Source of the DNA: Sumerlaeia bacterium
GTDB lineage: Bacteria; Sumerlaeota; Sumerlaeia; SLMS01; JAHLLQ01
Direction of reading: 5' to 3'
Length of the DNA: 64,000 nucleotides
NCBI GenBank assembly: GCA_040219255.1
Contig: JAVJSW010000001.1
Coordinates: 1-64,000, forward strand
Of this stretch, positions 22,101-24,599 are shown one piece after another; within the stretch, counting starts at the first letter, position 1, and each line of letters starts with the position of its first letter. Position numbers and translations under genes: made by a program. Below the pieces are notes generated by a model. The model was not told the origin of the DNA. It ran no database searches and saw only the letters and a program-made list of their open reading frames with translations.

Positions 22101-23027
22101 ATGAGCGACCTTTCCCAACGTGTGACTATCGTGGTAACGTCCTTCAACCGCCGCGACGACCTCGAGGTCTGCCTGCGGTCGGCCATCGCACAGCAGGGGT
22201 CACCCCGCGTTCTGGCCATCGACAACGGCTCCAACGATGGGTCCGGCGCCATGATCCGAGAAAAGTTCCCCCAGGTGGAGCTGAAGGAAATCGCCGTCAA
22301 CGAACCCCTCATCGTCATCCGCAACAAAGCCGCCGACTGGGTCCAGACACCGCTCATCGTCTCCATCGACGACGACGCGGAATTCACCGCCACAGACATC
22401 GTGGCCGAGACGGCCAAGCTCTTCGACGACGAGCGGGTCGGTGTGGTGGCGATTCCCTATGAAGACGTGAAAGTGGACCCCGGCAAGGTCCGCCAGAAAA
22501 AGCCCGACAGTGCCGGACAGTTCGCCACCTCGTCCTTTACCGGGACGGCGTATGCCATGCGGCGCGAGATTTTCAAAGACGTTGGCGGCTACCGCGATTT
22601 CCTGGTGCGCCAGGGCGAAGAGCGCGATTTCACGCTGCGCATGTTCCGCCGCGGATACCTGGCTCTGCTCGGCGATTCGGCGATCATCAAGCACTACGCC
22701 AGCCCCCGCCGCAACTTCCGCGAAATCGACATCTACGGACGCCGCAATGACGTGCTGTTCATCTGGTTCTTTTGTCCCATGCCGGAAATGCTGTGGCACC
22801 TGCCCGGCGTGCTGGCCAAGGGCGTGCTCCACGGCCTGAAGAAAAAGCGCCTCGGCAACAACCTCACAGGGACGTTCAAGGGCCTGGCCGACATTTGGCG
22901 CTATCGCGGCCTGCGCGAGCCCGTGTCACGCCGGCTCTACGCCATATACCGTCGCCTGCGCACGGAAGCCGTTCCGGCGGAGGAACTGGAAGCCGTCATC
23001 AAGGACGAGCCGAAGGCCCGCGTTTGA
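22101..23027 (+). CDS. GT2 family glycosyltransferase
   Basis: IVVTSFNR, IDNGSNDGS, RN, IDDDA, VGGY, GEERDF. Confidence 0.92.
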   Translation: MSDLSQRVTIVVTSFNRRDDLEVCLRSAIAQQGSPRVLAIDNGSNDGSGAMIREKFPQVELKEIAVNEPLIVIRNKAADWVQTPLIVSIDDDAEFTATDIVAETAKLFDDERVGVVAIPYEDVKVDPGKVRQKKPDSAGQFATSSFTGTAYAMRREIFKDVGGYRDFLVRQGEERDFTLRMFRRGYLALLGDSAIIKHYASPRRNFREIDIYGRRNDVLFIWFFCPMPEMLWHLPGVLAKGVLHGLKKKRLGNNLTGTFKGLADIWRYRGLREPVSRRLYAIYRRLRTEAVPAEELEAVIKDEPKARV

Positions 23028-23057
23028 TGACTTTGATTGGAAGCGCTAAAAAAGAAA

Positions 23058-23135
23058 TGGTGCCCCCAGCGGGATTCGAACCCGCGTTTCAGCCGTGAAA
23101 GGGCCGCGTCCTAGACCGGGCTAGACGATGGGGAC
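23058..23135 (-). tRNA. tRNA-Glu(TTC)
   Basis: Reverse complement GTCCCCATCGTCTAGCCCGGTCTAGGACGCGGCCCTTTCACGGCTGAAACGCGGGTTCGAATCCCGCTGGGGGCACCA: cloverleaf, TTC anticodon, T-loop, CCA end. Confidence 0.97.
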
Positions 23136-23387
23136 ACACAAGGCACCGACGCGGTCCACGGGTCCGGCATGAAGCCGTCCCGCCGTCGGGACGCAGAGAG
23201 TCATTAATGGCGCCTCGCAAGTCAAGGGGCGATTTGCACTTTTTTACGAATCCGGGAACATCCGGGAAGAGTTCGATCGGGGATCGGGAAATGCTGTGGA
23301 AAAGTGCCACGGGCGCATTTTGCCTCTTGACTCTTCCACTTCCGCGATGCCTACTGATTTCAGCCAATGAAAGGAGGTGGTCAATTA

Positions 23388-23426
23388 ATGAATCATGACT
23401 GTACAGGCGAGGTGGCCGAGTCCTAA
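23388..23426 (+). CDS. Candidate 12-aa small ORF MNHDCTGEVAES within a structured RNA
   Basis: AAGGAGGTG SD at 23371-23379, then ATG...TAA, followed by long stems and a terminator. Confidence 0.45.
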   Translation: MNHDCTGEVAES

Positions 23427-23545
23427 CCTCAACTCCTTGAGATGGATGACACGGGTAGTTTTCACCTAACTCAAATTCCCTCAGTGAGGTTAGGTAAATT
23501 CGACTCGGTCACCGCACACTGGCTTTCCCATTCTTGGAAAAGCGG

Positions 23546-23585
23546 CCCGCCATCGGTTTCCCACCGGTGGCGGGTTTTCTTCTTT
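23546..23585 (+). terminator. Intrinsic terminator
   Basis: cccgccatcggt-ttccc-accggtggcggg followed by ttttcttcttt. Confidence 0.8.
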
Positions 23586-23615
23586 AATTTCCCCCGCCGA
23601 CCCAAAGGAATCCCG

Positions 23616-24599
23616 ATGTCCCGTTCGCTACTATTTCCCCTACTCCTCGCGCCGCTGGCGCTGACTCCCGGTGCCACCCCCGCCCAGGAAAACCCCCAGT
23701 CCCCCGCCGTCACCATCATCCGCCACTCCGCCTGGAGCGACCAGCCTCCCCTCGGGGTCGAAGCCAACGGCATCCGCCGCAATCTGGGCGAGGGCGACTC
23801 GGTCACCTTCGAGCGCCTGACGGTGACCCTGACGACTTCGACCCTTGGGCTGAACGAGCCGGACCGTGCGCACTTGCGCCTCCAGACCAGCAGTTCCATA
23901 GGCACCCGCGCCGTCCCCGAAGGCGGCGCCTTCAACTGGAGCGATTACCACATCGCTATCCCCGCCATCTACGCCGAGAAGGGCGAGCTCGGCTTTCCCT
24001 ACACCGTCGTCGAAATCGCCGACGTGAACACCCTGCCCCCTCGCGTGGCCGAATCCACCTCCGCCAACGGCGCCGAAGACCGCCTGCGCGTGCCCCACAC
24101 CCTCGACAAGCTGACCCTGCATCACAGCGCCACCGTCCTGCGCGAGGAAGACGATCTCGCCCAGAAGCTGCGCAACATGCAGAGCTGGGGCGCCAACGCC
24201 CGCCAATGGTGGGACCTGCCCTACCACTTCATCATCGATGTGGACGGCACCGTTTTCGAAGGCCGCGACTACCGCTTCGTCGGCGACACCAACACCCAAT
24301 ACGACCCGACGGGCCACTTCCTGATCAATTGCTACGGCAACTATAACGAGCAGGAACCCAGCCCCGCCCAGCTCGACGCCATCGTGAACCTGATGGCCTG
24401 GGCGGCGATGGAGTACGACATCGACCCCAGCGAAATCTACGGCCACAGCGATCTCGCCGAAACCGAATGCCCGGGCGATGCGCTCGAAGCGCTGCTGCAC
24501 GACGGCACCATCGAACGCCGCGTGCGCGCGGTGATGGAAAAAGGCCAGCCCCGCCTTCGCTATGGGGACGAGGGCGGGGCCGGGGCGGAGGAAAAATAA
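23616..24599 (+). CDS. Secreted N-acetylmuramoyl-L-alanine amidase (Amidase_2/PGRP-like)
   Basis: Signal peptide; LTLHHSA, WWDLPYHFII, VFEGR, GHSD, TECPG. Confidence 0.88.
   Translation: MSRSLLFPLLLAPLALTPGATPAQENPQSPAVTIIRHSAWSDQPPLGVEANGIRRNLGEGDSVTFERLTVTLTTSTLGLNEPDRAHLRLQTSSSIGTRAVPEGGAFNWSDYHIAIPAIYAEKGELGFPYTVVEIADVNTLPPRVAESTSANGAEDRLRVPHTLDKLTLHHSATVLREEDDLAQKLRNMQSWGANARQWWDLPYHFIIDVDGTVFEGRDYRFVGDTNTQYDPTGHFLINCYGNYNEQEPSPAQLDAIVNLMAWAAMEYDIDPSEIYGHSDLAETECPGDALEALLHDGTIERRVRAVMEKGQPRLRYGDEGGAGAEEK

Follow-up and report, generated by a model that had tools for sequence, protein, structure and literature searches.

Is the structured element upstream of a cell-wall amidase gene in a Sumerlaeia bacterium a gene in its own right, or is it the leader of that amidase? 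The element lies in the intergenic spacer between a tRNA-Glu gene (23058–23135, minus strand) and an Amidase_2 gene with its ATG at 23616, in a stretch of 64,000 nucleotides (contig JAVJSW010000001.1, positions 1 to 64,000) that is here called the window. The original prediction, made from the sequence of the window alone, allowed both answers: an unannotated small RNA (sRNA) or micro-peptide gene of about 220 nt, or a translation-coupled attenuator of the amidase. The first of these is supported by a -35 box, covariation, a short open reading frame (mini-ORF), a terminator, the single copy of the element and its relatives in several phyla. The best explanation overall, to which we give a probability of about 80%, is an independent sRNA gene related to Ms_IGR-5 (Rfam family RF02471), with an extended Shine-Dalgarno (SD) block and a mini-ORF that ends inside the main helix of the RNA, P2.

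A distant relative of Ms_IGR-5

An Rfam scan of positions 22800–24000 returned no family at its cut-off except tRNA. The best other full-length match is RF02471 (21.1 bits, E-value 0.022), which aligns positions 23363–23531 to model positions 1–184 of 184. The locus is also the top match of this model in the 5.3-Mb genome, where the next one scores 16.4 bits.

Ms_IGR-5 is an sRNA of Actinobacteria, first reported in Mycobacterium smegmatis. Its parts and those of the window's element come in the same sequence: after a short 5' tail and GGAGGUGGUC, a hairpin encloses the start codon and GAGGUGGCUG provides the 5' strand of the long helix; a GAAU-type internal loop, a CACC 3' strand and a terminator follow. 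However, the host of the window is not an actinobacterium, and two segments set the element apart, the apical portion of P2 and the stretch that joins P2 to the terminator; in actinobacterial members, the terminator domain is branched and has a conserved UGUCC loop.

The two are connected by intermediates. Positions 23369–23433 are kept at about 80% identity in relatives of the window's genome, and by eye the whole layout is common to them; in relatives from the same family the elements are identical to those in Candidatus Sumerlaeota records. The pattern GAAAGGAGGTGGTC-N15-30-GCGAGGTG was found at at least 120 loci in a collection of species-representative genomes, spanning Actinomycetota, Binatia, Planctomycetota, Acidobacteriota, Sumerlaeota, Dehalococcoidia, deltaproteobacteria and alphaproteobacteria (Rhodobacterales). 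Among the matches listed, the Actinomycetota include Streptosporangiaceae, Nocardiopsis, Actinomadura and Nonomuraea.

When 18 of the pattern loci and related loci were scanned against Rfam, six reached the RF02471 cut-off, four of them (L009, L078, L012 and L017) at 96–102 bits and two (L018 and L053) at 56 bits. The loci at 96–102 bits are Actinomycetota sequences that carry the 5' motif of the window. Six further loci match RF02471 below the cut-off, at 25–33 bits, and the last six have no RF02471 match at E-values up to 0.1; one of these, from Roseovarius, matches RF01867 instead (50.5 bits).

A covariance model built from 38 sequences, none from the window's phylum (R2), finds positions 23357–23517 at full length with 68.3 bits (E-value 5e-19), while the next match in the genome has 14.3 bits. 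The window is thus tied to bona fide RF02471 members through intermediates and R2, with the caveat that 22 nt of this similarity were fixed by the search pattern. Because the RF02471 match is full length, bona fide loci share the motif and R2 scores the locus highly, we regard the element as a distant, sub-threshold member. Judged from sequence comparison, it is very probably the version, in the window's phylum, of a cross-phylum single-copy RNA family whose actinobacterial branch is Ms_IGR-5. The original prediction had treated a match to a known Rfam family as disproof; the sub-threshold relative found goes half of that way, and it names the element rather than refuting it.

Transcription of family members is on record in Actinomycetota. 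In the accessible parts of the reports, a Streptomyces avermitilis sRNA transcription unit with mapped start and end matched MS_IGR-5 (PMC8780764), and the S. lividans copy is marked as validated by RNA sequencing (PMC8079986). No published description was found of the mini-ORF, of the complementarity to 16S rRNA or of an occurrence outside Actinomycetota, the original description of Ms_IGR-5 being outside the reach of the search.

A conserved long helix

The plus strand folds with -93.8 kcal/mol, against -70.4 ± 4.6 in 200 shuffles, none of which is as good (z = -5.0). The fold of the minus strand is less exceptional (z = -3.5). Two long-range pairings of the ORF end that had been proposed from the window are both present in the minimum-free-energy fold. 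The first, P2a, joins 23411–23421 to 23503–23513 through 11 base pairs with one G.U, and the second, P2b, joins 23422–23431 to 23485–23494 through 10 perfect base pairs and holds the stop codon. Together they make up P2 (23411–23513, plus strand), which encloses a variable apical domain (23432–23484).

Two alignments were used to follow this helix in relatives. The first (A1) holds 37 members aligned with plain MAFFT, 31 of its rows having been retrieved by the motif pattern. The second (A2) holds 100 members fitted to a covariance model, R1, and therefore leans towards that model; A1 gives the same picture. P2a is paired in 85–87% of cells, and six of its ten aligned pairs have changed on both sides. 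Its strands read GGTGGCCGAG/CTCGGTCACC in the window and, for example, GGTGGCTGTC/GGCAGACACC, GGTGTCCGTC/GACGGACACC and GGTGGTTGTC/GGCAACCACC elsewhere. In P2b, two-sided changes are found in 10 of 11 pairs. The covariation score is 0.33, compared with 0.16–0.18 for shuffled columns (0 of 500 reach the observed value) and at most 0.18 when the partner strand is slid. Covariation thus establishes P2 as a conserved predicted structure of the family. In the collection of homologues and the covariation analysis that the original prediction had proposed, SD, ORF, stop position and helix all recur in relatives, and P2 covaries. Since these features are conserved in relatives, they exceed what chance would give.

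The remaining parts of the fold are smaller. On the 3' side of P2 lies an asymmetric internal loop, TAAATTCG (23495–23502, plus strand), defined by alignment columns 204–212 and the fold; its counterpart in relatives is the conserved GAAT(N)CC loop (GAAU-N-CC in the RNA), which recurs in the 37-member alignment. Upstream, the window fold has a 5-bp hairpin, P1 (GGTCA/TGACT, 23379–23400, plus strand), with the start codon in its loop. Downstream, a small hairpin, P3 (GCTTT.CCA/TGG.AAAGC, 23522–23543, plus strand), is predicted from the fold of the window. Inspection by eye showed no consistent tertiary contact of the P1 loop with the GAAU loop.

A mini-ORF that ends inside P2

The 12-codon ORF of the original prediction is present as described, running on the plus strand from ATG 23388 to TAA at 23424–23426 (23388–23426 in all) and reading MNHDCTGEVAES; both the sequence and conservation in the family define it. 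A stop triplet stands at one aligned position in 89 of 100 members (TAG in 74, TAA in 9, TGA in 6); most of the 11 members with a non-stop triplet there represent the alphaproteobacterial form or rows that align poorly. All 86 distinct stop-bearing members have an in-frame ATG, GTG or TTG 7–15 nt after GGAGG, ATG being used in 73, while a start at SD spacing occurs in 17 and 0 of the 86 for the other two frames. The ORF has 11–14 codons in 84 of 86.

These counts include 29 loci from the window's phylum that were found by model and not by pattern. By our own count, 27 of the 29 carry such an ORF. The remaining two are a close relative (L006/L143) with CTTG at the stop position, where by our own reading the frame runs on, and L146, whose row is shifted by one column in the alignment and which also shows a 12-codon ORF when the row is read. 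A start at SD spacing, a frame and a stop that are all kept across relatives point to a translated small ORF. In one Acidobacteriota record (L077, 1489–1644), the ORF has 19 codons and two GAGGTG modules, with a peptide ...SSEVSYRTREVAAT, which suggests an internal duplication of the SD-like block.

What, then, is kept by selection? If the locus were a micro-peptide gene, the 12-residue peptide (..EVAES in the window) would be the functional product and the RNA structure would serve only stability or expression. In favour of this, 86 of 86 members keep the start, the frame, the length and the stop, and a C-terminal x-E-V-x-x-x with a frequent upstream Cys or Thr recurs across phyla. However, this C-terminal motif is all that the peptides share, and their N-terminal half is variable. 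The codons for Glu-Val are the invariant GAGGTG of the conserved helix and never vary synonymously. The residues that follow (A/V/T/S/P/L, then V/E/G/D/T, then S/R/T/A and others) change non-conservatively, for instance from Ala to Val, Thr, Ser, Pro or Leu, together with compensating bases on the opposite strand, so that pairing is kept; and the stop is lost in the close relative described above. We consider a functional peptide improbable. Because start, frame and stop are kept while residues vary with compensating bases, the ORF appears to be selected for being translated, and the peptide sequence itself would not be the selected trait.

Dual-function sRNAs with a small ORF are known, such as SgrS/SgrT, RNAIII/hld and SR1/SR1P; they occur in narrow taxa and encode conserved peptides of 26–43 residues. 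The element resembles them in its sRNA-sized transcript and conserved translatable ORF. It differs in that its ORF encodes 11–14 poorly conserved residues and overlaps the main helix.

Complementarity to the 16S rRNA tail

A 9-nt match to the anti-SD, AAGGAGGTG at 23371–23379, had been recognized in the window; it exists, but its true extent is 14 nt. The extended block, GAAAGGAGGTGGTC (23369–23382, plus strand), is complementary to the last 14 nt of the 16S rRNA of the same genome with one G.U pair. The 3' end of this rRNA, ...GGATCACCTCCTTTC, occurs once in the genome, at the end of the match to small-subunit rRNA. Family members with GGTCC have a predicted duplex of 15 bp with the 16S tail. 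All 37 sequences of the first alignment carry this block unchanged, and it is largely retained in members that the model found without the pattern. In the window's genome, the runner-up of both covariance models is the antisense of the 16S 3' end (14.3–14.4 bits, G000:C56:102791–102852, minus strand), a reflection of the pairing potential between the 5' block and the 16S tail. As a side observation, one of the retrieved loci (L164) carries a 16S - tRNA - tRNA - 23S operon.

A second, internal SD-like sequence, GAGGTGG (23409–23415, plus strand), lies inside the ORF, with its GAGG 11 nt ahead of the stop, a spacing found in each of the 86 members. The corresponding GCGAGGTG is invariant in the 37-sequence alignment, which for part of the set was forced by the search pattern. 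The commonest distance between GGAGG and the start is also 11 nt (30 of 86 members), and the equality of the SD-start and SD-stop spacings may be significant.

These observations could also be read without a purposeful ORF, the RNA being purely non-coding and the apparent SD block being a seed for the 16S 3' tail or for CU-rich targets. A complementarity of 14–15 nt far exceeds what translation initiation needs, and the block is invariant across phyla. However, a start in one frame only at SD spacing, together with any of the three stops at one position, would be difficult to account for if the ORF were not translated. In addition, the accessible part of one study reports "significant ribosomal reads" on the MS_IGR-5 homologues of M. 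abscessus and M. smegmatis (PMC4974804). We rate the non-coding alternative marginally below the micro-peptide one, that is, as improbable too.

Relation to the downstream amidase

The strong terminator that had been predicted before the amidase is confirmed. It occupies 23544–23586 on the plus strand and has a stem of 14 bp (23544–23557/23563–23576), a 5-nt loop and the T-rich tail TTCTTCTTT, ending 30 nt before the amidase start. A sub-threshold Rfam match to ctRNA_pGA1 (33 bits, cut-off 45) covers nothing beyond P3 and the terminator. By our own strict rule, 55 of 99 family members have a terminator-like hairpin behind them, a count that marks the limit of the rule and not absence, as many high-GC terminators have no long T-run. 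When the whole predicted transcript is folded, the SD AAAGGAGG (23370–23377) pairs with the terminator tail UCUUCUUU (23578–23585) through 8 bp including a G.U. This pairing was dropped, as the one relative inspected by eye (L003) has no equivalent, and it may be incidental.

The position of the terminator invites the second answer of the original prediction, a translation-coupled attenuator of the downstream N-acetylmuramoyl-L-alanine amidase in which the position of the ribosome selects between stems and so decides on termination. RNA and amidase are on the same strand, only 30 nt apart, and no separate amidase promoter was identified. The layout is also that of trpL-type attenuators, in which a short ORF with an SD of its own precedes stems and an intrinsic terminator; for attenuator-derived rnTrpL, the accessible literature indicates that the RNA, once released, can serve as an independent sRNA. 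Unlike the trpL type, though, the element has neither a run of regulatory codons in its ORF nor a conserved antiterminator, and most relatives have a downstream gene that is not conserved and not on the strand of the RNA. Within the window's phylum, 16 downstream genes were assigned to a Pfam family; none is an amidase, nine are on the opposite strand and seven on the same strand. In Actinomycetota, the next gene is usually convergent with the RNA.

The stems themselves do not behave as an attenuator would demand. An alternative partner for 23485–23494, at about 23464–23474, does exist as had been noted (-9.3 kcal/mol), but it is no better than chance, shuffled apical sequences reaching -7.8 kcal/mol on average (z = -0.78). 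The alternative pairing is not evidence of a switch. As no conserved alternative fold was found, whether tested for pairing of the SD or of the apical domain, a simple two-state switch and with it the proposed mutually exclusive folds are not supported. Moreover, the terminator hairpin still forms when the region from the SD to 12 nt beyond the stop is held single-stranded. We therefore regard an attenuator of the amidase as very unlikely, although read-through into the amidase may take place in this one genome. A chance arrangement of motifs in a spacer, for which only the missing call of a consensus promoter speaks, is already refuted by conservation, with a fold z of -5.0, presence in 38 of 75 genomes of the phylum and covariation, and its probability is negligible.

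Arguments against an Ms_IGR-5-related sRNA gene

What sequence comparison establishes is a conserved, structured and single-copy predicted sRNA gene with an extended SD close to its 5' end and a mini-ORF whose stop lies inside P2. Several points weigh against the explanation that we favor, an independent gene related to Ms_IGR-5. At 21.1 bits, the locus stays below the RF02471 gathering cut-off of 45 bits. The 22 nt fixed by the retrieval pattern inflate the scores of R1 and R2 and the apparent invariance of the blocks in pattern-derived rows. The RNA would be transcribed on the plus strand from about 23362 to about 23586, with ends and translation deduced from sequence features; a search for sequencing runs that contain this locus listed one DNA metagenome run and two more from its study, none of them RNA. 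Support for P1 across the family is weak; a helix forms at its site in 76.7% of cells (97 distinct sequences), with a register that differs by clade. Sequestration of the SD by the 3' strand of P2 has a median z of -0.05 and goes beyond shuffles in the alphaproteobacterial variant alone, and the alternative apical stem shows no excess in the family (median z = -0.5 over 76 distinct members; 0.04 for the 30 from the window's phylum). The study that reports the ribosome footprints (PMC4974804) itself warns, in its accessible text, that such footprints on sRNAs may be artefactual. Finally, no target, partner or phenotype is on record for any family member.

Promoter and annotation of the locus

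The TTGACT hexamer noted in the original prediction as -35-like is present at 23327–23332 on the plus strand. Of the 29 loci from the window's phylum, most have TTGACn or TTGCnn at an equivalent place; there, TTGACn lies about 40–45 nt 5' of the GAAAGGAGG/SD block, often behind an A/T-rich stretch. No convincing -10 had been seen, and indeed a scan for consensus promoters called no full promoter at the locus. However, a -10-like CCTACT (23350–23355, plus strand) follows 17 nt after the -35, and relatives have GATACT, CATACT or CCTTAC there; in loci of the phylum, a -10 of the form nnTACT follows the -35. The predicted transcript would start near 23362–23364. The locus has a conserved -35 of its own, which supports a separate gene.

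In its own 5.3-Mb assembly, the gene has one match by both BLAST and covariance model. As the element is single-copy, a repeat or mobile element is ruled out.

The longest ORF of the amidase gene opens at 23442 and would cross the 3' half of P2 and the terminator. The true start is likely ATG 23616, with AAGGA a few bases upstream and an N-terminus, MSRSLLFPLLLAPLALTPGA, that by eye resembles a signal peptide. If automatic annotation over-extends the amidase gene to 23442, it could mask the RNA.

Distribution and genomic context

Genomes were searched with model R1 at E-values of at most 0.001, with strict filters in the large searches, so that all figures are lower bounds; as R1 was built from pattern-selected sequences, a genome without a match is no proof of absence. 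The groups are named after the record titles of the seed loci. The window's phylum has matches in 38 of 75 genomes, one in each, and in 25 of the 43 genomes that are at least 90% complete. The phylum of a Nocardiopsis genome (G075) has matches in 78 of 151 genomes, one in 77 of them and two in the other. This count includes six genomes flagged as unpublished (G080, G097, G127, G161, G167 and G199), with one match each; leaving them out gives 72 of 145. In the phylum of a Bryobacteraceae genome, 22 of 101 have a match, and in Planctomycetota 16 of 101. The phylum of a Syntrophobacter genome has 6 of 101, four at 19–22 bits, and that of Roseovarius 4 of 151, all weak; weak matches of 20–25 bits may include chance matches or rRNA antisense.

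The usual synteny in Actinomycetota, in the loci L009–L078, is a divergent gene of the FUR family or a GCV_T (folate-binding) gene and a convergent gene for a THAP4-type heme-binding (nitrobindin-like) or DUF2470 protein. A linkage to tRNA genes was rejected: the divergent tRNA-Glu of the window is not conserved, and tRNAs (Leu and Asn) are nearby in only one of 29 loci of the phylum. Two single loci have other neighbours. In a Bryobacteraceae record (L069), the gene for ribosomal protein L31 is directly downstream on the same strand (Pfam Ribosomal_L31, E-value 2e-33). In one actinobacterial metagenome-assembled genome (L009, 105–1175), a TnpB/OrfB_IS605 gene adjoins the RNA, and a match to the Rfam antisense family Sernc389 (95.9 bits) overlaps that gene.

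The variant in Rhodobacterales

The Rhodobacterales loci retrieved by the motif score 50.5 bits against RF01867 (CC2171; cut-off 75), a Caulobacter sRNA, and share GAAAGGAGGUGGUCC...GCGAGGUG. CC2171 and RF02471 may belong to one family. In window positions 22800–24000 there is no match to CC2171 at E-values up to 10, and model R1 scores the CC2171-like form at only 25–29 bits. By our own reading, the reading frame and ORF length of this alphaproteobacterial form differ from those of the window. Its SD can be sequestered by the CCACCUCC strand (-21.4 kcal/mol, z = -4.2). According to the accessible part of a preprint, CC2171 was detected by Northern blot in Methylorubrum (bioRxiv 10.1101/2022.01.24.477521).

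In seven of eight Rhodobacterales loci (L013, L021, L031, L036, L052, L054 and L087), the variant RNA is directly upstream, on the same strand, of a gene for an RF-1-domain protein. These frames encode 137–183 amino acids; Pfam confirms five of them, and the assignment of L052 and L054 comes only from their clustering with these five. We take such proteins to fit an ArfB-like ribosome-rescue factor. The variant RNA may be a cis-acting leader there.

A possible role at the ribosome

It is possible, if somewhat short of even odds, that the RNA acts by engaging ribosomes. A 30S subunit would be captured by the extended SD/anti-SD duplex almost at the 5' end of the RNA, and translation of the 11–14 codons would have to melt P1 and the base of P2. 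Because the 5' strand of P2 is made from the later half of the ORF and the stop codon, the passage of a ribosome would have to unwind this helix. The anti-SD of the terminating ribosome could then sit over, or pair again with, the internal GAGGUGG, 11 nt before the stop. The selected trait would be the act of translation or the occupancy by ribosomes, and not the peptide. Candidate outputs would be a remodelling of the RNA that depends on translation, its stabilization by ribosome occupancy, or the titration or sensing of free anti-SD or 30S subunits.

It can further be speculated, as a rather unlikely extension, that the family is a cross-phylum riboregulator acting on the ribosome itself, in which a 14–15-bp duplex with 16S rRNA forms, the terminating ribosome is parked on the second SD, and free anti-SD or 30S subunits are sensed or titrated. 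If this were true, the RNA could shift the balance of SD-led and leaderless translation, or report on the capacity for release and rescue. The Rhodobacterales variant upstream of the ArfB-like RF-1-domain gene would then be a cis-acting offshoot.

The element is real and of an ordinary kind, being an sRNA gene from a known but uncharacterized family; what makes it stand out are the breadth of that family, the conserved mini-ORF and the rRNA-complementary block. Ms_IGR-5 has long been listed as an actinobacterial sRNA, and the same RNA appears to exist well outside Actinomycetota, in phyla where it escapes standard Rfam annotation. Conservation is strongest in the block complementary to the anti-SD and in the mini-ORF with a fixed stop. 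Streptomyces and M. smegmatis offer tractable carriers of the family, and a single-copy RNA that addresses the ribosome and is conserved across phyla would be a candidate housekeeping regulator of translation.

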